From assembly GCA_964483395.1 (NCBI GenBank), contig CAZABT010000001.1:21267-85266 (forward strand): a DNA stretch of 64,000 bases. Reading direction: 5' to 3'. The position numbers were made by a program, and so were the translations under genes. The DNA comes from an uncultured Lachnospiraceae bacterium. GTDB lineage: Bacteria; Bacillota; Clostridia; Lachnospirales; Lachnospiraceae. Shown piece after piece: positions 4,100-51,331 of the stretch (the first letter of the stretch is position 1; each line of letters begins with the position of its first letter). The notes under the pieces are model-generated. The model ran no database searches. It was not told the DNA's origin and saw only the letters and a list, made by a program, of their open reading frames with translations.

Positions 4100-4166
4100 A
4101 AATGAAGCAGCACGATATAGAAGCAATGTAATGATAACGCATGTTACTGAACGAGAGGGAAAACAG

Positions 4167-5207: not shown

Positions 5208-5210
5208 TTC

Positions 5211-6836: not shown

Positions 6837-6876
6837 AATAGTAAAACAGCAGCAGTCTGTATACAGACGGGGAGAA

Positions 6877-19102: not shown

Positions 19103-19111
19103 AGGTTTAGC

Positions 19112-20569
19112 ATGGGAGAGAAGAAGCAGGGCAATCTGGTGAAAAGCTTCATAGAGTATTTTTACGGCAACTTTGTAGTGCTGCTGCTTGGCTTTGTTTC
19201 ACTGCCGCTGACGACAAGGCTGCTGGATACGGATGAATATGGAAGGACTGCCCTGTTTACCTCGGCAGTCTCTGTTATTTATATATTTGCGATTCTGGGT
19301 CTGGATCAGGCCTATATCCGCTATTTTTATCAGAAGGGCATTCGTCGCCGCAGATTGTTTCTGCAATGCTTGATTCCACCGGTCATCATTGTATTGTTTT
19401 TGTCAGCCCTGTATGTTGTGGGGGCGGATACTTTTAATGGGATTCTTTTTGGCAGAAGCAGTCTGGACATTACGATGCTTGTGATAGGATATACGATTAT
19501 TTCTGTTTTTGAACGATTCTTGTTTCTGAATATCCGTATGGAGCAGAGAGGAAGGTTATATTCTAATCTGAATATCCTCTCCAAGGTCATCAATATCTCT
19601 CTGCTCATCTTGTTTGCACTGCGTCTGGGCAATGATTTTCGGGTCGTTCTGTATGCCATGACATTGTCTCTTGGGATTGTGACGCTCATCGTGGGGATAC
19701 GATACATCTGCAAGGTACACAAAGAGCCGGCAGTACAATCGGACGAAAAGACGGAGGTAACAGAGAGAGAACTGCTGCGGTACAGTATTCCCTTTATCAT
19801 GATGCTGATGATGGAGTGGCTGCTGTCCTCTATGGATAAATGGTCGATTCGATTCTTTTGTGATTTCAATGAGACGGGAATTTATTCTGCTGCGATGCAG
19901 ATCATGACCGTAATTTTGACTTTTAAGATAACCTTTGTGGCATTCTGGTCACCGGTTGCAATGGAAAAATATGAAAAAGAAACAGAAGAAACCAATAAAC
20001 TGTTTTTTGCGGATATATTCCGTAAGGTGCAGTTTCTGTGCATGGTGGCGGCATTTGGCGTGACGATATGCCGCGGTATCATCGTGTTGATTCTGGGCAG
20101 GGGCTATCGTGGAGCGATTTCCGTCATACCGTTTCTGACGCTGATGCCGGTATTGAGTATTCTTTTCGAGATGATGAGCCAGGGCATCAAGTTCAAGAAA
20201 CAGGTTCGATACATTAATTATGCGTCTGTTGTTGCCATTTTCTGCAATCTTGCAGGCAACACCCTGCTTGTTCCCATTTTAGGAGGAAGAGGTGCTGCGA
20301 TGGCAACGGCCGTTACCTATATTGTCTATTTCTTTCTCGGAACCTTTTTTGCAGAAAAATGCTATCCGGTCGGTTATCCGCTCAGAACGCTGATCATCTC
20401 GCTGCTTCTGTACGTGGGCTATGCTTTTTATGCAACCTTCTGTACAGTAGAATGGCTCAGTGTCACAGTGGGAATCCTGCTGCTGGCAGTGGTATGTCTG
20501 CTGAATCGTGTTGTATTGATGGATCTCTGGAAATTTTTATATGGTATTGTGAAGCATAAAGATATCTAA
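19112..20569 (+). CDS. MOP-superfamily polysaccharide flippase (second Wzx-like protein)
   Basis: 485 aa, polytopic. N-terminus FYGNFVVLLLGFVSLPLTTRLL. AGAGG RBS. Confidence 0.7.
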   Translation: MGEKKQGNLVKSFIEYFYGNFVVLLLGFVSLPLTTRLLDTDEYGRTALFTSAVSVIYIFAILGLDQAYIRYFYQKGIRRRRLFLQCLIPPVIIVLFLSALYVVGADTFNGILFGRSSLDITMLVIGYTIISVFERFLFLNIRMEQRGRLYSNLNILSKVINISLLILFALRLGNDFRVVLYAMTLSLGIVTLIVGIRYICKVHKEPAVQSDEKTEVTERELLRYSIPFIMMLMMEWLLSSMDKWSIRFFCDFNETGIYSAAMQIMTVILTFKITFVAFWSPVAMEKYEKETEETNKLFFADIFRKVQFLCMVAAFGVTICRGIIVLILGRGYRGAISVIPFLTLMPVLSILFEMMSQGIKFKKQVRYINYASVVAIFCNLAGNTLLVPILGGRGAAMATAVTYIVYFFLGTFFAEKCYPVGYPLRTLIISLLLYVGYAFYATFCTVEWLSVTVGILLLAVVCLLNRVVLMDLWKFLYGIVKHKDI

Positions 20570-20577
20570 GAAACAGA

Positions 20578-22371
20578 TTATCTCCGATAGAGGACACCGC
20601 AGGGCACGTCGATGATTTCATAGCCTTCTTCAGTCACGTAGTTGAGGAGAAATCCACCGATTTCGTTTTCATTGGGTGTCGGATCGGCTACGACATCACC
20701 GCAGGTGTTATAGGAGCCATATTCGTCATTGAGCACCAGAATCATATCCGGATAGCGATCCGGATTGATGGTGTAGTAATCTTCCAGTCGTGTACTGCTG
20801 AATTTGGTACGCCAGGAAGTTGGAGAGCCACATTTCAAATCAGAACACATATATCCGAACGGCAGCAGCTTTGTGATGAAGAGGCTGCCGTTATTTTCTT
20901 TGGCAGGATTCAGATCGTCTGACTGACAGTAATCTGCCAATACCCCGTATACAGTTTCATACATAGAAGCATGCTCTGGAGTGGTATATAATCCGGCAGC
21001 AGGCCCGACAGTAATTTTTGTGGTCAGTTCCGGCAAAGGTGCATCACGATATACGTTTACAAAGCGTAATGTAATTGTTTGCAGCAGTGCAACCAATACA
21101 ATGCAGGTACATAGAACGGATATCGTTTCCAAAAGACTACTGTCCGTGTCAGCATTGCAGATTTCCTGCTTAAAATCATAAATCATCATGACACTTCCGA
21201 TGGAAGCAATAGAATGTCCCATTGAAAGAATATACAGATATCCATTCGAGGAATAGCTGTAGACCATAGAAAATATCATGCCCGAAGCAAACAGAAGAAA
21301 GAAAGCTCTTGCATGCCTGTCGGAGGTCAGGAAGAACAGCGGCAGTGCAAACATGCACAAAGCAGTCTGGATATAGCCGGTATGTCCGATGCTGCAAATA
21401 AAATACGCAATGAACAGCAGAATATCAATGCCGCAAAGGACTATTTTCACCCATCGGCCAATTGCTTTCTTATGCAGTTCGATCAATGCCAGCAGTGCTG
21501 TGACAATTATCAGAAGATAACCGAGGTAAGCTGCATAGCCGTAGACTTCATTGATTCCAATGAAAAATTTCTTCAGTGGATAGACCAGACTTGTGCCATG
21601 CTCCTCATCGGAGAGTACATACGGAATGGCCTGTATAAAATCAGAAAGCTGTACATTGGTCAGCAGAAAAATACCAAACACGATTGCAGGGATACAGATG
21701 CCCAAAAGAGTATATCCGCAGACGGTGGTCAGATGCCCTTGTCCGACAGCGTGTTTAATCCATACAGGGAGCGGCAGAAAACGGCATGCCAGCAGCAGAA
21801 GTATCACAATTACTATGATCAGTACATAGGCAACAGCCATTGTAGGAAGTGCAAGTACGGAAAGTGCAAAGAGGATACCTCCTAAGACAAGATACCGGCG
21901 CTGTTCTGTCTGACCATAATGCCAGATAAGCAGCATGGCAAGCAGGAAGAAGCCGACCGACATCGTATAATAGGACAGAGTAGCAATGTTCAGGTGTGTA
22001 TAAAAAAGGTAGAGCAAGGCGCAGATCAGTGCGATCCATTGCGGATAGGAAAATTTGATGATACGGTAGATGACGATACTGCAAATAACAGCATAAATTA
22101 CGAAGCAGATGCGAAAGAATAAAATCACACCAGTGGTAGAACCGACAGCATTGACAAAGAGAGAAAAGAGCGGAAGCAGCATAACGGAAGACAATTGTGT
22201 TGGAAACCAGTCATGCTGAAAAATGCTGTCTCCCTGATAGAAACGATATGCAGTGGAAAAGTAAAAGGTCTCATCCGACCAGCAGAAGCTGTAAAAGCAT
22301 TTCAGCAGCAACAGGATTCCGGATGTCAGCAGGATCAAGTAAGGAACATATTTCTTCATGGATTGTTTCAT
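20578..22371 (-). CDS. large polytopic membrane protein, GT-C-like (ArnT/PMT-style) candidate glycosyltransferase with soluble C-terminal domain
   Basis: The acidic motif WSDETFYF follows the first TM directly. There are about 12 or more TM segments and a roughly 170-aa C-terminal soluble part. Start set at the ATG with an AGAGAGGG RBS; the ORF track extends to TTG 22443. Confidence 0.5.
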   Translation of the reverse strand: MKQSMKKYVPYLILLTSGILLLLKCFYSFCWSDETFYFSTAYRFYQGDSIFQHDWFPTQLSSVMLLPLFSLFVNAVGSTTGVILFFRICFVIYAVICSIVIYRIIKFSYPQWIALICALLYLFYTHLNIATLSYYTMSVGFFLLAMLLIWHYGQTEQRRYLVLGGILFALSVLALPTMAVAYVLIIVIVILLLLACRFLPLPVWIKHAVGQGHLTTVCGYTLLGICIPAIVFGIFLLTNVQLSDFIQAIPYVLSDEEHGTSLVYPLKKFFIGINEVYGYAAYLGYLLIIVTALLALIELHKKAIGRWVKIVLCGIDILLFIAYFICSIGHTGYIQTALCMFALPLFFLTSDRHARAFFLLFASGMIFSMVYSYSSNGYLYILSMGHSIASIGSVMMIYDFKQEICNADTDSSLLETISVLCTCIVLVALLQTITLRFVNVYRDAPLPELTTKITVGPAAGLYTTPEHASMYETVYGVLADYCQSDDLNPAKENNGSLFITKLLPFGYMCSDLKCGSPTSWRTKFSSTRLEDYYTINPDRYPDMILVLNDEYGSYNTCGDVVADPTPNENEIGGFLLNYVTEEGYEIIDVPCGVLYRR

Positions 22372-22495
22372 AACAGGGCGGCCCTCTCTTTGTATCGGAC
22401 ACAGCAGTGTTTCCGGGTCTGTGTCGCTGTTTGATTTCACCAATAATAGTATAATACTGCTCCTGAAAACGCAAGAACTAAATATGGCTGTAAAA

Positions 22496-22524
22496 TTGAC
22501 ACAAACTGTGGATTACTATATAAT
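22496..22524 (+). promoter_or_regulatory. sigma-A type promoter, perfect consensus
   Basis: TTGACA (22496-22501), exactly 17 nt, TATAAT (22519-22524). It sits 46 nt upstream of the ATG at 22571. Confidence 0.8.
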
Positions 22525-22570
22525 TGAGGTCAGTAAAAACGGGTGATTCAATCACTCCGGAGGACGGAGC

Positions 22571-24115
22571 ATGGCAGCAGAAGTAGGCATACTAAAAGAG
22601 AATCGATATGTAAGAGGATTTTTACGGCACTACAGGATAGAATACCGGGAATTTGAAACGGCACAGGAGATGTTGGAGTCAGAGATACCGGTGCTTTTTT
22701 GTGATACACCGGTGGATATTGCTGCAGCGGTGAAGAACGGAAAGTTCATCATTGTCAATCATGCAGTGCTGATGGATTTTATAGGGAAGCCGGTGCAGAG
22801 GGCACCGGGCTATGATTATGTTATGAAGGATTTTGTGTTTGGAGAACGCAGCTTCTATATAGATGAGCCGGTTTATTGCTGCGACCCCAGTATGAATACC
22901 GTGGCACCAAAGCTGCAGCATTGGATCAGGGAGCAGGACTTTTTTGATGTGGGAGAGACCTTTTCCCCATCTAATGAGATGATACCGGGTGCCTGTATTC
23001 TGGCAGGACGGCAGGTGATTTCACTTCCGTGGAAACTCAGCAGTCTGGATCGATTGAAAAAGATTTCTTTAAGACCTCAATATAGAAAGAAGAGTAACCG
23101 CTATTCTGTCAGACTGCTACCGAATGTTGATTTTTCGGGACTGCGGCAGCTCCTGCTGGCATTGCTTCGTTATGCTTATCGCAGGCAGGAACTGTGGATG
23201 CCGGAATATCATTTTGCCAGCATCCGGATGGGAGATCAGGATATAGAGTTCATATATCCACCGGAGAAGATCATGGCAGAGACTGAACAAAAAAAGAAGC
23301 TGGCAGCAGTGCTTAGATTTGCACTGCCGATTGTGGTCATGCTGCTGTTTTTGGGTGCGGTTCTTAGTTTTACCTCACCATTGTTTGCAGCGGTTATGCT
23401 GGGCATTATGGTGGGTATGTGCATTACATTGCACATCTGCCGCAAGAAGCGTCCGTCTGCAATGAAATACCTGCTTGGAGCTTTTGCCGTGGCGGTGATA
23501 GGAATCAATCTGCTGTATAATGTACGCAGTCTTCCGACAATCTATCCGTTGTATCGTTCGGGGGTGCAGAGCCGCTATATTCCGGATTTTCTGGAGGAGG
23601 GGCTATATGCAGATTCATTGCTGCAGCTGCTTGTAAAAGACAAGACCGTTACAGTACACGATACCGGAGATGCCTATGAGCATCCTGTCTATGAGTATTA
23701 TGAGGAAGGTGATCCGCAGGTAAAATATGCGGTGGCACATGATCCCAAATATTATTACGGACGTGATTATTATAGATTTTTTGAGAAATTTGCAAAGGCT
23801 GTTCAAGTGGATGCAGCACTGGCAGCGAAGGATACCTTCGACTTTACCGCACTTCGGGATTCCGGAGGGATGTCTCCAATTGGGTTCAGCAACGATATGG
23901 CGAGGTATACGTTCTTGATCAATGAAGACGAGATCGAGCAGGCTTCTTATTTCTGGTATGATTTTGTATATCGAGAGGAATCGCCGACGATGTATGTATA
24001 TATGGAAAACGAACTGCCTTCTGACTGCGAGGAGCTGGTAGTCCTGTGGGATACAGAGAACAATCTGTATATTATGAGCAGGACATTCTACGAACAGGAG
24101 GTGCAGGTACAATGA
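22571..24115 (+). CDS. hypothetical membrane-anchored protein (soluble N-domain, about 3 central TM helices, acidic/aromatic C-domain); no family recognised
   Basis: A 514-aa ORF follows a consensus promoter and a GGAGGA RBS. Its stop overlaps the next start (ATGA). Confidence 0.6.
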   Translation: MAAEVGILKENRYVRGFLRHYRIEYREFETAQEMLESEIPVLFCDTPVDIAAAVKNGKFIIVNHAVLMDFIGKPVQRAPGYDYVMKDFVFGERSFYIDEPVYCCDPSMNTVAPKLQHWIREQDFFDVGETFSPSNEMIPGACILAGRQVISLPWKLSSLDRLKKISLRPQYRKKSNRYSVRLLPNVDFSGLRQLLLALLRYAYRRQELWMPEYHFASIRMGDQDIEFIYPPEKIMAETEQKKKLAAVLRFALPIVVMLLFLGAVLSFTSPLFAAVMLGIMVGMCITLHICRKKRPSAMKYLLGAFAVAVIGINLLYNVRSLPTIYPLYRSGVQSRYIPDFLEEGLYADSLLQLLVKDKTVTVHDTGDAYEHPVYEYYEEGDPQVKYAVAHDPKYYYGRDYYRFFEKFAKAVQVDAALAAKDTFDFTALRDSGGMSPIGFSNDMARYTFLINEDEIEQASYFWYDFVYREESPTMYVYMENELPSDCEELVVLWDTENNLYIMSRTFYEQEVQVQ

Positions 24116-25692
24116 CAACAGAACAGATGAGCGTTTTGCTGGAGGGACTTTCATCAGGCTGCTATATCAGGCAGGTACTTGCGATCATGCTGCTGTTTCT
24201 GACCGGTATTGCCTTTTTGTATGGATGCAGTGAAACGATGGAGAAAAGGTGGCTGTATCTGCTGGCCTATCCGATGGGACTTGCGATATGGTGTGTGACA
24301 GGTTTCCTGTTACTGACTGTCGGAATTCCGTTCCGGTGGTATACACAGCTTCCTGCAATGGTGCTGGTGGTTCTTGCAAATGCAATATTTCCCCGGCTGC
24401 GTCACAGAATTGGTTTGAGGAAAGATGTATTTGGAAGGAAAGGCACAACACTGCTTGCGGCATTGGCCGTCATGCTTGTGGCCGCCTGTGTGGCAACCGG
24501 CGGAATCAGCAGCTTCAGTGTATCCAATGATACGATGTATTATTATATGTATTATCCGGAGATACTCGTTCAAAATGGAGCTTATCTTAGTTCTTATGAT
24601 GTATTCCTGTCCGACGTGGGACCGATGGCGGCTTTGATCGGAACCATTCCGGCGATGCTTGGATTTGACCAGTTTTACGGAATCCAGCAGGTATTTCATT
24701 TGAATTTCATTCTGATTTTTGCCTTGTTAGTATATGAACGTGCCCGGACAAAGCTGCAGCATAAAACGGCAGTCGGCCTGACAGTGGCAGTCACGCTTTT
24801 ACTTGCGACCACAACACCCTATGTGGTGCTTTCCAAGTGGATTCTGGCAAATGTATATGTCATGAGCTACTGCTTCATACTCTTTGGACTGGCTTACAAA
24901 ATGGATACAGAGAGAAAAGAGGGAGAGCAGAGTCCGCGAGACTATCTGGCAGTCATTATGATATTGTCTGCAATGATTTCCATGCTGCGTATGGAGGGCG
25001 GCATGCTGATGTGCTTTATGATTGTATGTATATCAACACTCGGCTTCAGCAACAAAGAACTGAACATCAGGTTTTTGCTGCCGGCGGCAATGATGCCGTG
25101 CCTATACTATATTCGATATTTTCTGTTCTTAAAGGTGTCACCTGTCTATAGCTTTCTGACGTGGCAGAAGGCGGCGGTTGCAGTCGGAGCCATAGTATTG
25201 CTGGGACATTATATCGGTGCGGTCAGGGGAAAAAGACTGCTTAGGCTGCAGCAGAAGACAGGCTGGCTGATCCTGCTTGGCTTGCTGGCTGTGAATGCCG
25301 GACTTTGTGCAATGGCGCCATCGGCCTATATGGTTGTACTGAAAGCATTCTGGCAGAACATCATATACCAGGAGGGGTGGGGATATTCCATTTATCTGCT
25401 GGTTGCATGCATGATTGCAGTTTGTATGGTGAAGTCTCATAGAAAACCGGGAGACTCTATTCACTATGAAACGCTGGTCCTTTTAGGCTATGTTTTGTTT
25501 ACGCTGGCGGTCAGCTTTGCAAGAGGAGGAGGACTCAGACGCGGTATTGGCGATTCAGGAAATCGTGTGATGCTGCAGGTCATTCCATTTCTAATCTATG
25601 TGCTTGCCTGCAAGGCAATTGACCTGATCGAGAGTACCGAGGAACATAGAATGGAACAGAAACAGGAGGAAACAGATTCATGCCACTTGTGA
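24112..25692 (+). CDS. polytopic membrane protein (about 14 TM), unknown family; candidate GT-C/polymerase-like
   Basis: The ATG at 24112 overlaps the upstream TGA. The sequence is hydrophobic throughout. The ORF-track start 24046 lies inside the upstream gene. Confidence 0.55.
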   Translation: MTTEQMSVLLEGLSSGCYIRQVLAIMLLFLTGIAFLYGCSETMEKRWLYLLAYPMGLAIWCVTGFLLLTVGIPFRWYTQLPAMVLVVLANAIFPRLRHRIGLRKDVFGRKGTTLLAALAVMLVAACVATGGISSFSVSNDTMYYYMYYPEILVQNGAYLSSYDVFLSDVGPMAALIGTIPAMLGFDQFYGIQQVFHLNFILIFALLVYERARTKLQHKTAVGLTVAVTLLLATTTPYVVLSKWILANVYVMSYCFILFGLAYKMDTERKEGEQSPRDYLAVIMILSAMISMLRMEGGMLMCFMIVCISTLGFSNKELNIRFLLPAAMMPCLYYIRYFLFLKVSPVYSFLTWQKAAVAVGAIVLLGHYIGAVRGKRLLRLQQKTGWLILLGLLAVNAGLCAMAPSAYMVVLKAFWQNIIYQEGWGYSIYLLVACMIAVCMVKSHRKPGDSIHYETLVLLGYVLFTLAVSFARGGGLRRGIGDSGNRVMLQVIPFLIYVLACKAIDLIESTEEHRMEQKQEETDSCHL

Positions 25693-26453
25693 TCAATGCT
25701 GATGATTTCGGCAGAACCGAGGAAATCAATCAGGCAATTTGCGAATGCTTTCAATTGGATTATATTGACAGAACAACATTGATGGTGAATATGCCCTTTG
25801 CGGACATGGCTGTAGAGACGGCCCGGAACAATGGATTTATAGACAAAGTCGGACTGCATCTGAATCTGACGGCAGGCAGTCCGCTGACAGAAGCAATCCG
25901 CAGCAATCCGCTTTTTTGCGATGCAGAGGGAAATTTTCATGCAGGCTTTCATAAGAGTCTGAAAACAAGATTATTCATGAGCCGGACGGATATGGAGCAG
26001 ATCGGAGAAGAACTGGAAGCACAGATCGGAAAGTATCTGCAGTATGGATGTATGCTGCGGCATGTAGATTCTCATCATCACGTGCACACAGATCTGCCGG
26101 TTCTGAAGGCACTGAAGCCATTGCTGCAAACATATGAAATGAGATCCATCCGGATTGGGCGCAACTTATTCCGGGGAGGCTCATTGTTCAATAGAGGTTA
26201 CAAACGCTTTTATAATGCACAGCTAAAGAAGACCGGACTTGAACAGACAGACTATTTCGGTTCCATGCAGGATCTGCGTACCTATGTCAGGACCTGCGGA
26301 GCGGCCGGAAAGCTTTTTGTAAAGCAATATCAGACAGAGATCATGACACATCCGATGTACGATGAGGACGGCATGCTGGTGGATACCAGCGAGCCGATGA
26401 CAGATACGTGGTGCATGGAATTCGGACGATCACAAAGAGGAGAACAGATTTGA
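25680..26453 (+). CDS. YdjC/ChbG/HpnK-family carbohydrate deacetylase
   Basis: MPLVINADDFGRT, GLHLNLT, VDSHHHVH. AGGAGGAAA RBS. No signal peptide or TM. Confidence 0.85.
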   Translation: MPLVINADDFGRTEEINQAICECFQLDYIDRTTLMVNMPFADMAVETARNNGFIDKVGLHLNLTAGSPLTEAIRSNPLFCDAEGNFHAGFHKSLKTRLFMSRTDMEQIGEELEAQIGKYLQYGCMLRHVDSHHHVHTDLPVLKALKPLLQTYEMRSIRIGRNLFRGGSLFNRGYKRFYNAQLKKTGLEQTDYFGSMQDLRTYVRTCGAAGKLFVKQYQTEIMTHPMYDEDGMLVDTSEPMTDTWCMEFGRSQRGEQI

Positions 26454-29251
26454 ACCGAGAATCCCGGAAGGCTGCATTGCAGCAGTATATGCTTCCGCCG
26501 GCGGCAACCTTGCTCATTGTCGGCATTGTGCTATGGCTGAAGCAGATTTTTCCGTTTGGCGGGAATACAATTGATTATTATGATATGGGGCAGCAGATTG
26601 CCGCATTTTATTATCATGTTTATGATGCCCTGCATGGGACAAAGTCCTTGTTTTACGATTGGTACAGTGCTCTGGGTACGAACATGACGATGAACACATC
26701 AGGCTGCAGCAGTATCAGCTTGTTCAACCTGCTGCTGTACTTTGTGCCGCGTGAGGGTATTTTGCAGGCACTATCCATTTTTACAATGGTTAAGATGGCT
26801 TGTATGTCCCTGACAATGTATCATTTTCTGCATAAGACGATCAAGGCAGCATATGTCTGGGAATTTTGCTTTTCTGTCTGCTACGGAGTCTGCGGCTTTG
26901 CCATGATGTATTATATCACGAACCAGTGGCTGGATGTGGCTGTTTTCCTGCCGCTTTTGGCAGGTGCGGCAGTACGTCTGTGTAAAGAAAAGCGCATGAT
27001 GTCTTATGTGGTATATCTGACGATCTGTCTGACCGGCAGCTATTATCAAAGCTTTATGATTCTGATTTTTATTATGTTGGCGGTCGGAGCCTATTATTTG
27101 ACAGTCGGTGCATCTGAACGCGAAGAACGCAAGGCGGCGGTGTGCAGACTGGCGCTTGGTACGGCGCTGGCGTTCGGCCTGTCTGCTTTTATTTTGCTTC
27201 CGCAGCTGATACAGACCTTTGGTTCGACACGATTTGAAAACAATAACAAGGAAGGCAATTTTTATCTGAACATTTTAAAGCAGGTGAAGGGAGTCTATAC
27301 AACGAGGTGGTGGAGTCTGCTCGGCTTGTCACTGCCGTTTGCGGTGATCCTCCGAGGAATCTGTACCGGAATCCGCCGTTCGGGTTCATGGAAACAATAT
27401 CGTACAGGTGGGTACTTCAAAAAAGATTTATTTTTTGTATTGATGATTGTAATGATGTGCTTGGAACTGCTGCTTGAAAGTGTCAATCTGATGTGGCATT
27501 TTGGATCCTATGTCGGGTATCCGATCAGAAATGGGTTTATCATCAGTCTTATGGTGTTGACAGCGGCATGCTATTATGCAAAGCGTCAGGAAATCAGCGA
27601 ACAGGAGGACGGAGAGAATTGTTTGCTGTATAAGCTGCTGTTAGGCAGTGTTTCAACAGCTATCATTGCGGGACTTGTGATCTGTGCATACCGGAGCCGT
27701 ACGGACTGGGTGCTGCGCAGTGTGTTTCATATGACGGCATTGATTTGCGGAATCAGTTTTTTACTCTATTCTCTGCTTTTGTGGAGTTATACTGCTGCAA
27801 TCAGAGCAGGACTCAGCGGAAAGCGGATATTCCAGCGGGCGGCAATCGTGAATCTGCTTTTGGCAGAACTGGTTGTATTTGCATATATGATGCTTGGAAA
27901 ACCCGATTATACGACGGGCTATTCTGAGCAGGCAGAGCAAAGTGGTGATTATATTGCGGAGACCAATGAACTGGTAGAAGAACTGCACATCACAGACTCT
28001 GCAACAGAAAGAATCAAAAATCCAGATACGGAGTTGAATGCGAATTATCCGTTTGTCATGCGTCATGCATCACTCAGTAACTGGACGCATATGATAGAAC
28101 CCTCCTTTCAGAAGGGAGCAGTAGACTGGGGCTACTCTATCCAGTATATGCGAGTGCTGGATGCGGGCGGTACGGTATTTTCTGATGCATTGCTGGGCAT
28201 CCGTCAGGTACTCAGTGTTAAGGAACAGCCGGAAGAACTTTATGAAGAGGTTGGAGGCACAACGGTAGGAGAAGGCAGTGAAGCGAAAGAATACAAGCTG
28301 TATCAAAGCAAATATACCTTACCGTTTGGAATTGTAATAGAAGGCTATGACAATGAAACCTATGAGACTCTGAGTGCAGAGGCTGATGATCGATTTGCAG
28401 TGCAAAATGCACTTTATAAGCAGATGCGGCCTTCAGAAGAGGCTCCGCTGATAGAGACGGTCTGTGCCGGTGAGGGAGCAGCGGATGCGCAGCAGAGCAT
28501 CAGGATAACAGGACAAAAGGTACTTTATTTTTCCGGAGCAAGCGTGGACAGTGATGAGGGAAATATGATTATATCGGTGAATGGCAGGCAGGTTGCAGTG
28601 CCAACGATCGGGAGTCCGGAGCAGGTGAATTATCCGGCATATTTCAATAATAATTTCATCTGTCTGGGGGTATTCGAGAATGAAACCGTTCAGATAGATA
28701 TAGAGTTTTTGGATGTTGAGGAAGCTAAAAGAATGGATCGTGATGAGTGCTTTTCCATTGGAGCACTCGATCTTGAATTGCTGCAGGAGCTTTGCAGCAG
28801 TGAAGCAGAAAAGGAAATGGTAACAGAGCCGGTTACAGACAATACGAGTCTGACGCTTACGGTGAAGGATGCGCCCGAAGGAGGCACGTTACTGCTTCCG
28901 GTCAAATATGATCGGGGCTTTGCCGTGCAGGGGAATGCCATGGAAGTCCGAACGGAGCAGGGGTATGGTGTGTTTACTGCAATTCCGCTGCAGGAAGGTG
29001 ACAATCGGATTGTCATGAAGTTCTTCCCCACTGGAATGCGTATAGGCTGTATCCTCAGTCTCTTGACAATGCTCCTTGCAAATGCATTGTTGTATGCCGT
29101 AAAAAGAAACAGGCTGCTGCTGTCGAATCGGACAGAGCAGGTGCTTCACAATGTAGTGTGGAAGTTATTTTTGGCCGTATGGGCCGCCGCAGTGCTGGTA
29201 ATCTATATCATACCGGTTTTATATGCACCGTTTGGGCTGTTGCTGAAATAG
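26450..29251 (+). CDS. YfhO-family GT-C membrane glycosyltransferase
   Basis: FPFGGNTIDYYDMGQQIAAFYYHVYDAL..SLFYDWYSALGTNM is a typical YfhO N-terminus. The protein has many TM segments, a large extracytoplasmic domain and a C-terminal TM. TTG 26450 has a GAGGAG RBS at 8 nt; the ORF-track start is GTG 26408. Confidence 0.75.
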   Translation: MNRESRKAALQQYMLPPAATLLIVGIVLWLKQIFPFGGNTIDYYDMGQQIAAFYYHVYDALHGTKSLFYDWYSALGTNMTMNTSGCSSISLFNLLLYFVPREGILQALSIFTMVKMACMSLTMYHFLHKTIKAAYVWEFCFSVCYGVCGFAMMYYITNQWLDVAVFLPLLAGAAVRLCKEKRMMSYVVYLTICLTGSYYQSFMILIFIMLAVGAYYLTVGASEREERKAAVCRLALGTALAFGLSAFILLPQLIQTFGSTRFENNNKEGNFYLNILKQVKGVYTTRWWSLLGLSLPFAVILRGICTGIRRSGSWKQYRTGGYFKKDLFFVLMIVMMCLELLLESVNLMWHFGSYVGYPIRNGFIISLMVLTAACYYAKRQEISEQEDGENCLLYKLLLGSVSTAIIAGLVICAYRSRTDWVLRSVFHMTALICGISFLLYSLLLWSYTAAIRAGLSGKRIFQRAAIVNLLLAELVVFAYMMLGKPDYTTGYSEQAEQSGDYIAETNELVEELHITDSATERIKNPDTELNANYPFVMRHASLSNWTHMIEPSFQKGAVDWGYSIQYMRVLDAGGTVFSDALLGIRQVLSVKEQPEELYEEVGGTTVGEGSEAKEYKLYQSKYTLPFGIVIEGYDNETYETLSAEADDRFAVQNALYKQMRPSEEAPLIETVCAGEGAADAQQSIRITGQKVLYFSGASVDSDEGNMIISVNGRQVAVPTIGSPEQVNYPAYFNNNFICLGVFENETVQIDIEFLDVEEAKRMDRDECFSIGALDLELLQELCSSEAEKEMVTEPVTDNTSLTLTVKDAPEGGTLLLPVKYDRGFAVQGNAMEVRTEQGYGVFTAIPLQEGDNRIVMKFFPTGMRIGCILSLLTMLLANALLYAVKRNRLLLSNRTEQVLHNVVWKLFLAVWAAAVLVIYIIPVLYAPFGLLLK

Positions 29252-29266
29252 CAGGAGGGATTTGGA

Positions 29267-30970
29267 ATGCATAAAAATGAAAAACTCAGGGAGCTTCTGA
29301 AAAAACCGTTTGTCATTGCTGCGATACAGAATATCGTCTGTCTGTTATCCTCGTTGTGTCTATTTCATCCGCACTTTGAGGAAAATGATGATGTCATCAT
29401 CGCATTTATTGCGGAAGGGGTATATGGGGCAAGAGACAGTCATCTTGTCTATGTGAATCATTGTCTGGGAGATTTTCTGAAGTTTCTGTACAGCCTGTGC
29501 GATGGAGTACGCTGGCATTCCGTGCTGCAGTATGTGGGAGTGTTTACTGCTTTTACAGTTTTATCCTATATCCTGATCCGTGAAAAAAAGCATGGCGGGC
29601 TGTTGTCTGCGTTGTTTCTGCTTTGCACGTTCTATGAGGCATATGTTTCCCTGCAGTACACAAAAACAGCGGCGATTCTTGTGGCAATTGGTTATGTGAT
29701 CATTTTCTACTGTCTAAAAATCGTTCGGCGCGGAGAAAAAAGCATTGAGGGACTCATGGCAGTGGGAGCCATTTTGCTGTTTTACGGAGCATTGCTGCGT
29801 ATCAGTTGCTTTTATATGGCTACGGCAGTATTTATTCTGCCCGCTGTGAATGAAGTTTTCAAGATATGCAGAGAAACGGCAGTCGGCCACAAGAAAAAAC
29901 TTTTGTTCGCTTATCTGGCTGTGTTTGCGGCAATTTTTATGGCAATCTGTGCTTTTGGCTATGTTGATCGTCAGGCATATGTATCAAATGAAGGCTGGGC
30001 ACGCTATAAGACCTTTAATGCGAATCGCATGAAGCTGTTGGATTATCGTTATGATCTGATGAATTATGAAACGTATGGTGAGGAATTGGAAGAACTGCAT
30101 GTATCGGAGAATGATGCCCTGCTTTATCTTACCTGGCAGTTTGGTGACAGCAGTGTGTTTAACAATCAGCTCATCAATGAAGTTATTAAGGATGCTGCAC
30201 CCCGACCGCTTGACATAGGGATGCTGAAGCGTCTGGCAGCACATATCTTTGAGGAATTGTATGGGCTGAATGCTTATATGATAGGAATTTTGGGCGTGGG
30301 TCTTTGGATGCTTCTGAATCGAAAAAAACAGACCGTTCTGCTTGTGCTTTACCTTGGAGCTGTATTAACGGCAGTGCTTTGCTATTACGAGTACAGCGGC
30401 AGATGGAATCACAGAGTTGTTTTTGCAATACTTTTTACTGTTTTGCTCATGCTGCTCGCATACGATGGAGGCGAAGAAAAAAAGCTGATGCAAATGCTGA
30501 TTGGAATTTGTCTGATGATCAATGTGGGCCTGTTTTTGAAGGATTCCTTCGATTATAACCGCTATGTGCGGGAGGAAGCATCGGGAACAGCGCAGTTGAC
30601 GGCATATACGGAACAACATGAGGACAATCTATATCTGATTGACCCGTTTACAGATCAGACGGCATATCAGTATGATGTATTCAAGGCTTATCCGGAGGGT
30701 GCATTTAAGAATCGCACCTATTTTGGCGGATGGCTGTCCAATTCTCCGGTTTATGCGGAAGTGCTGAAGCGGTACGGGTACAGGAATGCGTTTCAGGCGT
30801 TGAAGGCATCGCCGTCGGATGAGCGGATTTATTTGATAGATAATTGCTATCCGGAAGAAAAACTGCTTTATTTGCAGGAGCACTATGGGAAAAAGCTTGC
30901 TCTGGAAAAGGTGGAGTGTGTAGGTGGATATACGATTTACAGAGCGATCAAAGCAACTGGAGAAAATTAA
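29267..30970 (+). CDS. polytopic membrane protein with soluble C-terminal domain, unknown family; GT-C-like candidate
   Basis: An acidic loop HFEENDD follows the first TM. About 10-12 TM segments and a roughly 130-aa C-terminal soluble part. AGGAGGG RBS. Confidence 0.55.
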   Translation: MHKNEKLRELLKKPFVIAAIQNIVCLLSSLCLFHPHFEENDDVIIAFIAEGVYGARDSHLVYVNHCLGDFLKFLYSLCDGVRWHSVLQYVGVFTAFTVLSYILIREKKHGGLLSALFLLCTFYEAYVSLQYTKTAAILVAIGYVIIFYCLKIVRRGEKSIEGLMAVGAILLFYGALLRISCFYMATAVFILPAVNEVFKICRETAVGHKKKLLFAYLAVFAAIFMAICAFGYVDRQAYVSNEGWARYKTFNANRMKLLDYRYDLMNYETYGEELEELHVSENDALLYLTWQFGDSSVFNNQLINEVIKDAAPRPLDIGMLKRLAAHIFEELYGLNAYMIGILGVGLWMLLNRKKQTVLLVLYLGAVLTAVLCYYEYSGRWNHRVVFAILFTVLLMLLAYDGGEEKKLMQMLIGICLMINVGLFLKDSFDYNRYVREEASGTAQLTAYTEQHEDNLYLIDPFTDQTAYQYDVFKAYPEGAFKNRTYFGGWLSNSPVYAEVLKRYGYRNAFQALKASPSDERIYLIDNCYPEEKLLYLQEHYGKKLALEKVECVGGYTIYRAIKATGEN

Positions 30971-31048: not shown

Positions 31049-31096
31049 AAAATACAGAGATTGCATCTCAACAACCTGTGTTTATTTCTTATATGG

Positions 31097-31118
31097 CTCG
31101 CGGCTCATCCCCGCGAGC
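31097..31118 (+). other. GC-rich hairpin in the roughly 160-nt leader / inter-operon gap
   Basis: GCTCGCGG, a 6-nt loop, CCGCGAGC (8 bp perfect). No good U-tract follows directly. A weaker stem plus T6 follows at about 31128-31155. Confidence 0.35.
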
Positions 31119-31213
31119 TGTATTGCGTCTGTAATCTGAGACCGACAGATTTTTTGCTTGCCAATGTGTCGGACTGTATGAGAAAATAATGTGAGTGCAA
31201 GGAGGCGGTCTGA

Positions 31214-31936
31214 ATGATAACCTGTGCGGTATGCGATGATGATTATGTATATGCAGAGCGGATCAAAGAGAAAATTCAGGAATATGCGCTTCAAAAGGAT
31301 ATTCAGTGTGCTGTTGATGTATATGGCAGCGGTGAGGAACTGCTGGAACAGAAAAATAAAAAATACAGTGTTTATTTTCTGGATATGCAGATGAAGGAAA
31401 TTGACGGAATGAAGGTGGCCGGAGCAATCCGAGAGGCAGACGAGAGAGCGGTCATTGTATTTATTTCCGGCTATATTCAATATGCGGCAAGGGGCTATTG
31501 CGTCAATGCAGTCAGATATATTCTGAAGCCACAGCTTGAGGAGGAATTTGCGGACTGCATGGATGCAGTGGTTGAGCATTTATCCAATATTGATGAAACA
31601 CTGAGTATACATATCGGAACAAGAGACATCGAGTTAAAGCTGGATGATATCGTATATATAGAAAATGATAAGCGCAAGGTTTTGATTCATATGAGTGAGG
31701 AACAGGTGATTTACGAGACTTATGCGAAAATCTCGGATTTGGTTGAGCGCCTTCACCGAAACGGTTTCATTTATTGTCATGCGGCTTATCTGGTCAATGC
31801 GAATAAAATTACGGAAATAGGTCCGACAGAATTTTTGCTGGTCACCGGGGAGAGGGTTCCCATCAGCAGACAGAAATATCTGCAGGCACAAAAGGAATAC
31901 TATTTCTGCAAAGTGAAGTCTAATGTGTTTCATTAG
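31214..31936 (+). CDS. LytTR-family (LytR/AlgR/AgrA-type) response regulator
   Basis: Receiver residues are present (CDDD, FLDMQM, VFISGY, ILKP). The C-terminal LytTR domain shows DIVYIE..RKV.IH..YAKISDL. AAGGAGG RBS. Confidence 0.9.
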   Translation: MITCAVCDDDYVYAERIKEKIQEYALQKDIQCAVDVYGSGEELLEQKNKKYSVYFLDMQMKEIDGMKVAGAIREADERAVIVFISGYIQYAARGYCVNAVRYILKPQLEEEFADCMDAVVEHLSNIDETLSIHIGTRDIELKLDDIVYIENDKRKVLIHMSEEQVIYETYAKISDLVERLHRNGFIYCHAAYLVNANKITEIGPTEFLLVTGERVPISRQKYLQAQKEYYFCKVKSNVFH

Positions 31937-31965
31937 CAGAGATTGCAAAGGGGGCTGAGATTTCA

Positions 31966-33276
31966 ATGGACACGATCTGGCATGCGATACCGCATTTACA
32001 GATGATTTTCCTGCCGCGCATATTGGAAGCGATTGCAATCAGGGAGTTTATGGACATTGTAGTTGTCAGAAGATATAAAAGACAGGTGTACTATATTATA
32101 TGGTATCCTGTTTTCGTTTTGTGGCTGTACGCAGTCTCACTGCTTGCAATACCGGAGCCGGCAGAGCTTTTGGTCAACATGCTTTTTTCTCTGTTTACAG
32201 TATCACTGCTGTATACGGGAAGTAAGGTGCAGTATTTGGCAGCTGCGGTCATAGCAATTGCGGGAAATAAGCTTTTTGATATCTTTATGACGCAGGGTTA
32301 TGCGCTGCTGTTTCACATTGATATAAAAAGTGTCGCAGCCAACAGTGTTGAGCTGTTCGGAGTGATCATGCTGACAAAGCTCACGGAAATGCTGCTTGTT
32401 AAGATTATGCGAGGAATCGTGGGCTGCCGGAGAATTAAGGGCTTAAAGAATGAGGATTACTTCTTGTACTTTCTCATGCCGATTGTCAGTGTTGTCGTTA
32501 TGAACCTGCTGTTTGCCGATTGTGTCCGGCACGGAACCATGTCAGATATACTGATGTATGCAATGCTGGGAATTGTGGTGCTGGATATTGCAATCTTCCA
32601 CATGATGCACAGAATGGAGTCTTATTATAAGTCAGAGAGCAACCTGCGTGTTTTGTACAGTCAGGCGACGGCGCAGATGGAAAATATAGCGGCAGTAGAA
32701 CAGACGCATAAAAGGCTGCGGCAGATTTCACACGGAATCACAACACAGCTGTCAGCGATCGAAACGCTGCTGAGACATCATAAATATCAGGAAGCCGAGG
32801 ATTATCTGAAGAGCATAACGGATACGGTTGAGCAGGATATGCTTCCGATTCATACAAACAATGTCGTTGTAGATGCCCTGCTGAACCAGAAATATATTCT
32901 GGCTCATGCTAAGGGAATCAAGATGCAGTTTGACATTCAGGACTTACAGAATCTTCGGATCAGGACGACGGACATGGTATCGATCCTGTCCAATGGATTG
33001 AATAATGCAATAGAAGCCTGTCAGGCTGTTGAGGGAAACCGGATGATCGAACTTAAAATCATCAATGGAGATTCGGAACTGTTGATTTCGATTCAGAATA
33101 CGGTTCGGCAGGATATTGCAATCGAAGGCAGTCTGATTCCGACATCAAAAGCAGATAAGTTTCATCATGGCTTGGGTCTGGAAGGCATCAATGCCGTTGT
33201 AAAACGATATAACGGAACGTTGTTTTTGGAGTGCGAAAACAGGATTTTTAAGCTGATTGCAGTTATAAACTCCTGA
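31966..33276 (+). CDS. AgrC-like sensor histidine kinase (6-7 TM sensor + GHKL ATPase, HATPase_c_5 type)
   Basis: The N-terminal roughly 200 aa is polytopic. H-box region LRQISHGITTQLSAI. N-box SNGLNNAIEA. G-box HHGLGLEGI..YNGTL. Confidence 0.8.
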   Translation: MDTIWHAIPHLQMIFLPRILEAIAIREFMDIVVVRRYKRQVYYIIWYPVFVLWLYAVSLLAIPEPAELLVNMLFSLFTVSLLYTGSKVQYLAAAVIAIAGNKLFDIFMTQGYALLFHIDIKSVAANSVELFGVIMLTKLTEMLLVKIMRGIVGCRRIKGLKNEDYFLYFLMPIVSVVVMNLLFADCVRHGTMSDILMYAMLGIVVLDIAIFHMMHRMESYYKSESNLRVLYSQATAQMENIAAVEQTHKRLRQISHGITTQLSAIETLLRHHKYQEAEDYLKSITDTVEQDMLPIHTNNVVVDALLNQKYILAHAKGIKMQFDIQDLQNLRIRTTDMVSILSNGLNNAIEACQAVEGNRMIELKIINGDSELLISIQNTVRQDIAIEGSLIPTSKADKFHHGLGLEGINAVVKRYNGTLFLECENRIFKLIAVINS

Positions 33277-33287
33277 AAAAACATAAC

Positions 33288-33307
33288 TGTAAACAAATTG
33301 TAAACAA
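33288..33307. repeat. direct repeat TGTAAACAA x2 in 11-bp phase, with an inverted related copy (TGTTTATTTACA) at 33315-33326
   Basis: Read directly. It lies upstream of and overlapping the candidate promoter of the Spo0A-C gene. Confidence 0.5.
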
Positions 33308-33320
33308 CATTTCATGTTTA

Positions 33321-33349
33321 TTTACAAGAAATGTATCAAATGGTAAAGT
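33321..33349 (+). promoter_or_regulatory. weak candidate promoter for the Spo0A C-domain gene
   Basis: TTTACA, 17 nt, TAAAGT. Confidence 0.3.
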
Positions 33350-33404
33350 TTCTCTGGGGAGTAAGCGAGAATGCTGTCTGACGGCAGACCGGGGGGTCAA
33401 TTCA

Positions 33405-33785
33405 GTGGTTGAATCAGCAGCGGATCTAGAGATTCATGTAACAGAAGTATTACGGCAGGTGGGAGTACCGGCCAGGCTGACGGGCTATCATTATCTGCGG
33501 GAAGCGATCATGATGCTTGTGGATGATATGGAGATTTCCCATTCTATCACTAAGGTATTGTATTATGATGTGGCAAAAAAGCACCATTCAACAACGGAGA
33601 AGGTTGAGAGAGCCATACGTACGGCAGTGGAGGTCTCTTGGGAAAGAGGTAATTCCCAAGTGTTTGAACAGATATTTGGATATTCTGTGATCAGCGGACG
33701 AAAAAAGCCCTGCAATTCGGAATATATGGTTCAGATTGCTGATCAGATACGGTTAAAGAGAAAATATCAAACACCCTTGATTTAA
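33405..33785 (+). CDS. stand-alone Spo0A C-terminal (DNA-binding) domain protein, no receiver domain
   Basis: GVPARLTGYHYLREAI, ..EKVERAIRTAVEVSWERGN..FGY..KPCNSEYMVQIADQIRLK aligns by eye with the effector domain of Bacillus Spo0A. GTG start after a GGGGGG RBS. Confidence 0.85.
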   Translation: MVESAADLEIHVTEVLRQVGVPARLTGYHYLREAIMMLVDDMEISHSITKVLYYDVAKKHHSTTEKVERAIRTAVEVSWERGNSQVFEQIFGYSVISGRKKPCNSEYMVQIADQIRLKRKYQTPLI

Positions 33786-33803
33786 TTCAGGGGTGTTCTT
33801 TTT
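33770..33803. terminator. bidirectional rho-independent terminator shared by the convergent Spo0A-C and zinc-ribbon genes
   Basis: AACACCCTTGA, a 6-nt loop, TCAGGGGTGTT (11 bp including one G-U), then CTTTTTG on the + strand and TTGATATTTTCT on the - strand. Both stop codons lie inside the hairpin. Confidence 0.7.
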
Positions 33804-51258: not shown

Positions 51259-51331
51259 GGATGAGCTTACGGTGAAGCAGTTGTTCATATTATGAAGTGA
51301 AAGAAAAATAGATGGAAAAGGAACAGGACAA

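Follow-up and report, generated by a model that had tools for sequence, protein, structure and literature searches.

A 64,000-nucleotide stretch of DNA from an uncultured Lachnospiraceae bacterium (the window) carries, at positions 22571-30970, an operon of five genes encoding the proteins P1, P2, YdjC, YfhO and P5. We find that this operon is a real co-conserved unit, and that it is the outside-membrane half of a known kind of wall-sugar decoration, multi-component transmembrane glycosylation, rather than new machinery. The balance of the evidence leans toward a module that decorates, or assembles a side chain on, the rhamnan-type wall polysaccharide of this uncultured, gut-type Lachnospiraceae bacterium. 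Its unusual aspect is the use of four membrane glycosyltransferases together with a deacetylase that probably exposes a free amino group on a lipid-carried sugar. What appears to be undescribed is the combination, in a Gram-positive bacterium, of a proposed deacetylation step like that of NaxD, an invariant pair formed by YfhO and P5, and a split unit composed of P2 and the C-terminal domain of P1 (P1C).

A conserved operon of five genes

Open reading frames were called and their junctions inspected throughout 22571-30970, and protein families were scanned with Pfam and NCBIfam models at the library cut-offs. The region holds five plus-strand genes in the order P1, P2, YdjC, YfhO, P5, preceded by a promoter-like site:

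22496-22524, plus strand: operon promoter, TTGACA-17-TATAAT, a match to the sigma-70 consensus only (12 of 12 positions)
22571-24115, plus strand: P1, 514 amino acids
24112 (ATG) to 25692, plus strand: P2, 526 amino acids; the longest reading frame begins at GTG 24046
25680-26453, plus strand: YdjC, 257 amino acids
26450-29251, plus strand: YfhO, 933 amino acids from TTG 26450; the longest reading frame begins at GTG 26408 and has 947 amino acids
29267-30970, plus strand: P5, 567 amino acids

P1 and P2 overlap by the sequence ATGA (24112-24115), and P2 and YdjC overlap by 13 nucleotides (25680-25692). The TTG codon at 26450 has the ribosome-binding site AAGAGGAG 8 nucleotides upstream and forms a TTGA overlap with the YdjC stop; it is most plausibly the start of YfhO, in preference to GTG 26408. 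A gap of 15 nucleotides, with AGGAGG inside it, separates YfhO from P5. Given these stop/start overlaps and the AGGAGG-bearing gap, the five genes are predicted to be translationally coupled. Full-length homologues of all five reading frames occur in independent assemblies with the gene order preserved, so the arrangement is not a product of chance.

The promoter at 22496-22524 is the top promoter-like site across 17.6 kb. It lies within a 127-bp divergent intergenic region, 46 nucleotides 5′ of the P1 ATG, which has its own ribosome-binding site, GGAGGA, at 22559-22564. No good terminator was seen between P5 and positions 33770-33797, where the first convincing one comes after the genes for a response regulator and its neighbouring kinase and for a small protein with a Spo0A_C domain only. 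The 243-bp gap 3′ of P5 contains a G+C-rich hairpin at 31096-31120 (GCTCGCGG...CCGCGAGC), which was left unscored as a terminator because it has no T-run and which could be an attenuator or a processing site.

A preliminary description of this region, made from the letters of the DNA, had counted five tightly packed genes and one more. The tight packing holds, with four coupled genes and another after the 15-nucleotide gap, but there are five genes in all. Likewise, P2 is polytopic as described but has 526 amino acids from ATG 24112 rather than 527. Both overlaps that had been reported are borne out by the junctions, and the length of roughly 930 amino acids given for YfhO agrees with the 933 found here. 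The same description portrayed YdjC as cytoplasmic, P1 as a soluble N-domain followed by transmembrane helices and an acidic, Tyr-rich C-domain, and P5 as carrying an EENDD loop after its first transmembrane helix, all of which are recovered in the predictions given below.

To follow the operon across relatives, all components were mapped by profile hidden Markov models in 28 fetched loci. The loci of the P1 clade, which extend to 43% identity, share the order Bac_transf, GT2, GT4, GT4, DegT, GT2, Wzx, Pup (minus strand), P1, P2, YdjC, YfhO, P5, response regulator, histidine kinase, where GT denotes glycosyltransferase families. One member of this clade (L012) has a YfhO fragment at the usual place (13694-14071) and a second, more divergent YfhO after the kinase (20137-21393). 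Among more distant loci anchored on P5, at 32-47% identity, nine extend far enough to show which gene comes directly before P5, and in each it is YfhO. YdjC is upstream of YfhO in six of the seven that are informative, and P2 is present in five of six. YfhO and P5 are an invariant adjacent pair, and P5 is an obligate neighbour of YfhO.

YfhO and P5, a putative pair of GT-C enzymes

The assignment of YfhO to its family is clear. The protein matches PF09586 with E=2.1e-99 and 334.5 bits against a cut-off of 28.5, over profile positions 5-835 of 835, and is predicted to have at least 11 transmembrane helices and a 379-residue acidic extracellular domain. The nearest curated NCBIfam models are PgfM2 (E=2e-33) and PgfM1 (E=2e-22), whose equivalog cut-offs are missed by a wide margin (115.5 against 1500 bits and 79 against 1400 bits, respectively). 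A sequence search of the PDB with YfhO found nothing.

P5 matches no Pfam or NCBIfam family above threshold, as is also true of P1 and P2. Approximately 70 clusters of P5 relatives are present in a database of 5.8 billion clusters; none bears a protein name, and those with a taxonomic label are Lachnospiraceae or Clostridia. A PDB sequence search with the P5 family profile gave no meaningful match. The AlphaFold2 (AF2) model of P5, however, is of high quality (predicted local distance difference test [pLDDT] 93, predicted TM-score [pTM] 0.92), and the top 10 hits in a Foldseek search of the PDB are exclusively glycosyltransferases of the GT-C fold. The best neighbour is ArnT (5ezm, E=2.7e-4, probability 1.00), followed by STT3, ALG12, AftD, EmbA/B/C and Pmt1, with global TM-scores that are modest (0.3-0.44).

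The predicted topology of P5 comprises a cytoplasmic N-terminus rich in Lys and Arg, a first transmembrane helix at residues 13-35 and an acidic outside loop at 36-84. The EENDD sequence occupies residues 38-42, straight after this helix, and E38, D41 and D42 are invariant in 61 relatives, as is R178 in the family alignment. By its predicted placement, the EENDD loop is the classic acidic (modified DxD) motif that GT-C enzymes carry in the first extracytoplasmic loop. The fold neighbours of the model and this invariant acidic loop together identify P5 as a divergent GT-C glycosyltransferase, as modeled, belonging to a family for which the libraries hold no model. Judging from its context, namely the co-conserved PgfS/ArnC-like GT2 and flippase described below, P5 may use a donor linked to polyprenyl phosphate.

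P2 and its proposed partner P1

P2 is predicted to have 12-14 transmembrane helices and no soluble domain. A word-based search yielded 50 relatives, and an exhaustive profile search with a limit of E≤1e-3 raised this to 818 representatives; the family has no Pfam model. Ten remote relatives scanned against Pfam matched no family, and the same scan of all P2 and P5 family members gave scattered sub-threshold matches to DUF6541 only, with weak ones in 8 of 50 members of the P2 family; a literature search found no mention of DUF6541. A PDB sequence search with the P2 profile was also without a match. Wzy proteins are notoriously divergent, and no model of the Wzy or O-antigen-ligase type in Pfam or NCBIfam matched P2 or its remote relatives.

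The invariant polar residues of P2 (N139, D140, D168, R293, E295, R471 and D481-R485) are all predicted to lie on the outer face of the membrane. Its best profile-profile match by hhalign is P5, with P2 residues 100-498 collinear with P5 residues 2-440. This alignment, which has a probability of 9% and E=0.0035, places N139-D140 on N40-D41 of P5 and R293 on the invariant R178. Probabilities among the P2, P5, YfhO and Pup families (Pup being an upstream polytopic protein introduced below) do not exceed 9%. P2 is probably a GT-C-like transferase or polymerase, for which the alignment with P5 is suggestive, not proof.

P1 is far rarer than P2, with relatives in only 16 clusters. A scan of 185,579 reference species for its motifs, which is blind to divergent short forms, recovered P1 in six. 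Each of these is an uncultured metagenome-assembled genome, and five are labelled Lachnospiraceae. The protein is predicted to consist of a cytoplasmic alpha/beta N-domain (residues 1-205, in a soluble N-terminal part of up to about 240 residues), three transmembrane helices (about 232-317) and an extracellular alpha/beta C-domain (about 345-514) that is acidic and Tyr-rich (16 Lys/Arg, 36 Asp/Glu). In the AF2 model (pLDDT 74.8), the N-domain most resembles the class I glutamine amidotransferases 2ywj and 2ywd, although weakly (E ~5e-3, TM-score 0.45-0.52 on the target). The C-domain has no structural neighbour in the PDB, a search of a viral structure library with P1 was also empty, and the family profile of P1 found no sequence match in the PDB.

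A role for P1 as a glutamine amidotransferase was considered and set aside. The fold signal is weak, there is no match to a Pfam GATase model, and the N-domain is missing from most versions of the module. Moreover, the candidate nucleophile, C142 in the sequence Gly-Ala-Cys, is Ser in 2 of 16 relatives and is modeled in a strand, not in a nucleophile elbow.

The distant loci have, in place of P1, a shorter protein (about 236 amino acids) that matches only positions 273-507 of the P1 profile, corresponding to the last transmembrane helix and the C-domain. This short form is placed directly before P2, and in one locus (L014) a truncated gene before P2 ends with the same signature, LVVLWD...NLYIM...YYE.EV. 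Indeed, the P1 C-domain precedes P2 wherever the region upstream of P2 is visible. Furthermore, two distant P2 relatives, P0260 and P0270, are fusions that begin with a transmembrane helix and about 170 residues matching the P1 C-domain (hhalign probability 73%, E=3e-5). Their scores of 15.5 and 14.8 bits compare with at most 11.8 bits for approximately 400 shuffled or reversed controls. From the short forms and the fusions, the conserved unit is P1C plus P2, and the P1 N-domain is a clade-specific addition. The conserved core of P1, one transmembrane helix and the extracellular C-domain, behaves as a proposed accessory partner of P2.

A candidate deacetylase of a lipid-linked sugar

YdjC matches PF04794 with E=4.9e-45 and 154.9 bits against a cut-off of 29.7. 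It has neither a transmembrane helix nor a signal peptide and is cytoplasmic by prediction. Aligned with EF_3048 (2i5i), it retains the metal-site motifs NADDFG, HLNLT and DSHHHVH. Within the same superfamily, NaxD of Francisella and Acinetobacter deacetylates undecaprenyl-phosphate-N-acetylgalactosamine (GalNAc) for the addition of galactosamine (GalN) to lipid A (PMC11279074), and the Bordetella proteins LgmA, LgmB and LgmC perform the equivalent lipid A modification with glucosamine (GlcN) (PMC4993483). By analogy, YdjC of the window is proposed to be a NaxD-like deacetylase of a polyprenyl-phosphate-N-acetylhexosamine.

The company that YdjC keeps in relatives is instructive. In the distant loci, the gene before YdjC encodes a dehydrogenase that is closest to TviB, a uridine diphosphate (UDP)-N-acetylglucosamine 6-dehydrogenase (E ~1e-131), and that scores far lower against UDP-glucose dehydrogenases. 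One such locus (L026) has the string P1C, P2, a short YfhO-like GT-C protein, a PgfS/ArnC-like GT2, the TviB-like dehydrogenase, YdjC, YfhO and P5. The GT2 of this string matches PgfS (6e-78) and ArnC (2.7e-53); in the window the GT2 instead lies 6.6 kb upstream of YdjC. The genomic association of YdjC with an ArnC-like GT2 and a GT-C transferase is present in both. In L014, two half-size EamA proteins of 114-121 amino acids, similar to ArnE/F, are found between YdjC and YfhO. Our literature search found no paper that contains both YdjC and YfhO, and YdjC is absent from the 15 top-ranked papers retrieved for it together with teichoic acid or wall polysaccharide.

Supply genes and regulators next to the operon

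Four genes upstream of the operon and two downstream of it bear on its function:

17052-18170, plus strand: DegT, a sugar aminotransferase of the PseC/WecE/ArnB type (PF01041, E=8e-112)
18167-19102, plus strand: GT2 of the PgfS/ArnC/CsbB/GtrB type, 311 amino acids, with full-length matches to PgfS and ArnC
19112-20569, plus strand: Wzx-type (Polysacc_synt) flippase (PF01943, E=5.8e-15)
20578-22443, minus strand: Pup, a polytopic protein of 621 amino acids with a weak PMT_2 match (E=1.5e-4, below cut-off)
31214-31936, plus strand: LytTR response regulator (Pfam)
31966-33276, plus strand: GHKL histidine kinase (HATPase_c_5, Pfam)

The match of the GT2 to PgfS has E=5.9e-58 over positions 2-304 of 308, and that to ArnC has E=1.4e-46 over positions 6-311 of 316. 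The protein has a soluble catalytic domain and a C-terminal transmembrane hairpin (221-287), as in polyprenyl-phosphate sugar synthases, and we infer from these features that it is a cytoplasmic enzyme of that kind, the maker of the donor. It is kept in relatives, including within the operon itself in L026. Wzx is also kept beside the module, and in L020 and L022 it immediately precedes the short P1 and P2. Thus, at the level of family and fold, the set of a GT-A-type undecaprenyl-phosphate (C55-P) sugar synthase, a flippase and GT-C enzymes is present in GT2, the Wzx-like protein and YfhO/P5.

DegT, whose best NCBIfam types are PseC, WecE and ArnB with none reaching its equivalog cut-off, is kept upstream of the module in all P1-clade loci; it may be part of this module or of the adjacent Bac_transf/GT4 block. 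Pup has a predicted cytoplasmic N-terminus, a first transmembrane helix at 32-55, an outside loop with the sequence W-S-D-E-T-F-Y and an acidic soluble tail of 156 residues. A PDB sequence search with it found nothing. On these features Pup is a probable fourth GT-C glycosyltransferase, and its position is kept in all P1-clade loci and in L014. The LytTR/GHKL pair, a candidate regulator of the module, follows P5 in all P1-clade loci and in L015. After the kinase, in the stretch 31214-33785, is a 126-residue protein that has a Spo0A_C domain without a receiver domain and that is kept in L001 and L013.

A few differences between relatives concern the surroundings of the module. In L001, which is 68% identical, genes for MatE, a GNAT acetyltransferase, a SpoIIE phosphatase and an HATPase_c_2 kinase (3550-7988) are inserted between Wzx and Pup, and this GNAT protein could supply an N-acetylation step that was not found in the window. 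The distant modules (L012, 11749-17840; L014, L018-L022 and L026) have, after P5, a DUF6077 membrane protein of about 360 amino acids and an unclassified protein of about 300, both absent from the clade of the window. Immediately 3′ of the module in L014 (14003-19669) is a toxin-like protein of 1880 amino acids with RHS/YD repeats.

A wall-polysaccharide superlocus

As judged from the families of its neighbours, the operon is inside a rhamnan-type wall-polysaccharide superlocus. Upstream are the Bac_transf/GT2/GT4/GT4 block and a cluster containing NeuB and Wzx. Downstream are RmlA/B/C, an ABC-2 permease with a Wzt ATPase, large GT2 enzymes, a GT87 GT-C protein with GtrA, a WcaJ-like transferase and a LytR-CpsA-Psr (LCP) ligase. 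The module adjoins rhamnan genes (RmlA/B, ABC-2/Wzt) in all lineages.

Other genes of the superlocus deserve mention. A NeuB-type nonulosonic-acid synthase, a Wzx flippase and a cytidylyltransferase fusion of 548 amino acids lie together at 6796-11021, which indicates that a sialic-acid-like sugar is also made here. Two proteins encoded at 1758-3005 (415 amino acids) and 5211-6836 (541 amino acids) fall into no Pfam or NCBIfam family and are candidate Wzy-type polymerases or unmodelled membrane enzymes. Between rmlA and rmlC is a gene for a 941-residue GH25 muramidase with Big_2 and choline-binding-like repeats (36239-39064), and a protein of similar size, 868-1017 amino acids, occupies this position in L020, L021 and L026. 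A multi-methyltransferase of 769 amino acids (42009-44318), beside the ABC-2 permease and the Wzt ATPase with its Wzt_C domain, may be a chain-terminating modification enzyme of the polymer exported by that transporter. A second, separate extracytoplasmic set is found at 50089-53018, comprising the GT87-family GT-C enzyme (389 amino acids), the GtrA flippase and a carbohydrate esterase of the SASA family. Also within the polysaccharide locus, a protein of 257 amino acids (53812-54585) matches the transmembrane region of lysyl-phosphatidylglycerol synthase.

A proposed mechanism and its alternatives

The family or fold of YdjC, YfhO, P5 and GT2, the topology of their motifs, the coupling and co-conservation of the genes and the fusion of P1C to P2 are observations from which a sequence of roles can be proposed. 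At the inner face of the membrane, the PgfS/ArnC-like GT2 would use a nucleotide donor to charge polyprenyl phosphate with an N-acetylated amino sugar. Soluble YdjC would then deacetylate this lipid-linked sugar in the manner of Francisella NaxD. With deacetylation preceding flipping, the flipped sugar would carry a free amine. The Wzx-type flippase, or an ArnE/F-like pair in one relative, would take the lipid-linked sugar across the membrane, and GT-C enzymes outside would use it as donor. Among these, YfhO and P5 would act as a pair and Pup as a fourth GT-C enzyme, while P2, which has no soluble domain, would work with P1C as an acceptor-binding or co-polymerase subunit. The likeliest acceptor is a wall polymer, the rhamnan encoded next door. 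Because four transferases would share one donor synthase, either a short amino-sugar chain may be built outside the membrane or the same sugar may be placed on several acceptors.

Several observations weigh against this reading. The curated models nearest to YdjC are ChbG and HpnK, both below their cut-offs, and the likeness of YdjC to NaxD was drawn from the superfamily and the gene context. The clade of the window lacks the TviB-like dehydrogenase and has a DegT instead. Neither an N-acetyltransferase nor a UDP-N-acetylglucosamine (UDP-GlcNAc) 4,6-dehydratase was found among the scanned window proteins, which leaves no evident N-acetyl group for YdjC to remove, unless GT2 uses UDP-GlcNAc directly. 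Wzx may serve the adjacent Bac_transf/GT4 block instead, and L016 has YfhO and P5 without YdjC or P2. Finally, the only link between P2 and P5 is the alignment described above, and the positive control for that method, P5 against YfhO, fails. A method that misses the relationship of two confirmed GT-C families is unable to settle which fold P2 has.

It is possible, if doubtful, that P2 is a divergent Wzy-type polymerase and P1 a Wzz-like co-polymerase, both acting on the polyprenyl-diphosphate repeat unit that the Bac_transf/GT2/GT4/GT4 block makes and Wzx flips, with only YdjC, YfhO and P5 performing a single-sugar decoration. Such an arrangement would fill a vacancy, as the conserved upstream block (Bac_transf-GT2-GT4-GT4-DegT-GT2-Wzx) has no recognisable polymerase, and it would suit the contiguity of Wzx, short P1 and P2 in two loci, the many helices of P2 with no soluble domain, and its invariant Arg residues in outside loops. 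WpsI and WpsH of lactococci are a polymerase and co-polymerase pair of this general type (PMC9574508). However, the sole alignment signal of P2 is to the GT-C enzyme P5, with the acidic motifs coinciding; P1C has one transmembrane helix before its extracellular domain, as opposed to the two-helix hairpin and large loop of Wzz and WpsH; and P1C-P2 persist in L026 and L014 with no cytoplasmic repeat-unit glycosyltransferase block within 10 kb. The two explanations also overlap, in that WpsI itself is called a GT-C-fold protein (PMC9574508). The idea that the whole interval is a Wzy-dependent polymerisation unit was rejected for YfhO and P5, given their GT-C family and fold assignments.

The remaining alternatives relocate either the acceptor, the substrate or the novelty. 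We consider it unlikely that YdjC stands outside the lipid-linked pathway, with a soluble sugar (the case of ChbG) or a nucleotide sugar as its substrate and with sugar salvage or precursor supply as the sole reason for its place in the operon. Its best curated match is indeed a chitin disaccharide deacetylase (E=1.4e-32), and among solved structures it is closest to EF_3048 and a chitooligosaccharide deacetylase. Yet YdjC is translationally coupled between two polytopic membrane-protein genes, keeps its place beside YfhO across lineages in which the sugar-nucleotide enzymes are swapped, directly precedes the ArnE/F-like pair in L014, and has no phosphotransferase-system or chitobiose genes nearby. 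Protein O-glycosylation of the Pgf kind, in which GT2 and YfhO-type enzymes would modify Ser/Thr-rich regions of surface proteins instead of wall polysaccharide, is quite unlikely. Streptococcal PgfS, PgfM2 and PgfM1 are the best curated matches of GT2 and YfhO, and in streptococci it is established that membrane-associated proteins are glycosylated in a Pgf- and GtrB-dependent manner (PMC12041528). The module is nevertheless no equivalog of Pgf: its proteins reach 196 bits where the cut-off is 500 and 115 bits where it is 1500, a wide shortfall in both cases. In addition, it has no PgfE-type epimerase, it is beside rhamnan genes in every lineage, and no gene for a Ser/Thr-rich substrate was seen in the locus. 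Very unlikely, in our view, is a genuinely new glycan-tailoring catalysis in an unclassified protein, for which P1 with its cytoplasmic N-domain would be the most plausible site. P1 has no sequence family, its N-domain has invariant residues (FCD, NH.VLM, Y.MKDF.FGERSF and G.[CS]IL.GRQ.ISLPW), and a GATase1-like fold could support hydrolase or amidotransferase chemistry. Against this stand the weakness of that fold match and the variable, strand-bound C142, as well as the absence of the N-domain from all distant versions of the module, which have the transmembrane helix and C-domain only; the N-domain is therefore dispensable for core function.

These results also revise the preliminary description of the region. 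Its placement of the action at or outside the membrane, on lipid-linked sugars, agrees with the YfhO family and the GT-C fold of the P5 model, and the supply genes it expected elsewhere in the window are those for DegT, GT2 and Wzx immediately upstream (17052-20569). The operon is co-conserved in relatives to about 32-45% identity, and the searches placed none of the three proteins it found unassignable in a family with an unrelated role. These three indeed lack a Pfam or NCBIfam family, but only P1 is still without assignment, P5 being GT-C by fold and P2 probably GT-C-like. The structural search that had been proposed gave GT-C neighbours for P5, and for P1 it gave the weak GATase1-like N-domain and no neighbour for the C-domain. 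Consequently, the suggestion that a new activity was most likely hiding here gives way to divergent or probable GT-C enzymes and, in P1, mainly an accessory partner. The label of an undescribed system is weakened as well, since multi-GT-C assembly of rhamnan side chains (PMC9574508) and NaxD deacetylation (PMC11279074) have already been described.

If the proposed YdjC step is true, the module would represent the first Gram-positive wall-glycopolymer pathway with NaxD-type deacetylation of a lipid-linked donor, and free-amine sugars would be displayed at the cell surface by Lachnospiraceae that are abundant in the gut and rumen. Such amines alter surface charge, a property that in other bacteria controls cationic-peptide resistance, the adsorption of phages and recognition by the immune system. 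The analysis also defines two unmodelled GT-C or GT-C-like families, P5 with about 70 clusters and P2 with about 800 representatives, together with the P1C partner domain. In its most extended and rather improbable form, the decoration model would make this module the Gram-positive equivalent of the Arn/NaxD pathway for cationic amino sugars, with a YdjC-deacetylated donor (a hexosaminuronic acid in some lineages) and four GT-C enzymes that place an amine-bearing, possibly zwitterionic oligomer on rhamnan, much as mycobacterial arabinan is built from a single lipid-linked donor. One of these enzymes would be a split GT-C protein whose separate P1C, tethered in this clade to a cytoplasmic domain, could couple donor supply to assembly.

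Comparison with known systems

The closest precedents for the proposed order of steps are NaxD/FlmF2/FlmK of Francisella and LgmA/B/C of Bordetella, which share the logic of an ArnC-like GT2, deacetylation to undecaprenyl-phosphate-hexosamine by a YdjC-superfamily enzyme and transfer outside by a GT-C enzyme (PMC11279074, PMC4993483). The GT-C proteins of the window, however, are of the YfhO type and of two unmodelled families rather than ArnT-like, and there are four GT-C-like proteins rather than one. As a Gram-positive host has no lipid A, its acceptor can only be a wall polymer or a protein.

The Arn pathway offers a similar series of slots, with an aminotransferase (DegT), a polyprenyl-phosphate GT2, de-acylation before flipping, a flippase (the EamA pair in L014) and a GT-C enzyme, and ArnT is the top structural neighbour of P5. 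The window differs in that its flippase is Wzx-type, its transferases are outside the ArnT family and its de-acylase is of the YdjC family, whereas ArnD is a polysaccharide-deacetylase-family enzyme. Because neither ArnA (UDP-glucuronic acid decarboxylase/formyltransferase) nor ArnD domains were found among the scanned window proteins, the module is not a member of the Arn pathway.

Among Gram-positive bacteria, the CsbB/GtcA/YfhO and GacI/J/K/L systems likewise combine a GT-A polyprenyl-phosphate synthase, a flippase (Wzx-type, as in GacK) and a GT-C enzyme that acts on lipoteichoic acid, wall teichoic acid or rhamnan, and YfhO is a named member of these transmembrane glycosylation systems (PMC8035078, PMC9574508). 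Each of them has one GT-C enzyme, whereas the window module has four. A deacetylase of a lipid-linked donor is listed neither in PMC8035078, in which 'deacetyl' is absent, nor in PMC9574508, which mentions only that of the rhamnan linker GlcNAc. A second, acceptor-binding protein has been predicted for small GT-C enzymes (PMC8035078), and P5, P2 and P1C provide a testable example of this arrangement, on which reviewers have so far speculated.

The Wps system of Lactococcus lactis places a side chain onto rhamnan by means of the flippase WpsG, the GT-C polymerase WpsI, the co-polymerase WpsH and the GT-C ligase WpsJ (PMC9574508). It resembles the window module in having several GT-C-fold enzymes, a membrane-anchored extracellular accessory protein and a Wzx protein next to rhamnan genes. 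P2 and P1C resemble WpsI and WpsH in concept, a likeness of description rather than of sequence. P1C has one transmembrane helix and then its domain, whereas WpsH has two helices around a loop, and the Wps model contains neither a YdjC step nor a YfhO-P5 pair.

A final parallel is the addition of GalN to the arabinogalactan of mycobacteria and corynebacteria by PpgS, Rv3632 and Rv3779, where the lipid-linked sugar needs deacetylation and the deacetylase and flippase are unidentified (PMC9671496). As proposed for the window, a polyprenyl-phosphate-GalNAc synthase and a GT-C enzyme place a free-amine hexosamine on a wall polysaccharide, although the taxa and the GT-C families are unrelated. The window operon, in contrast, encodes a candidate for the deacetylase, and if the YdjC step is true it would offer a candidate enzyme class for the one missing from the mycobacterial pathway.

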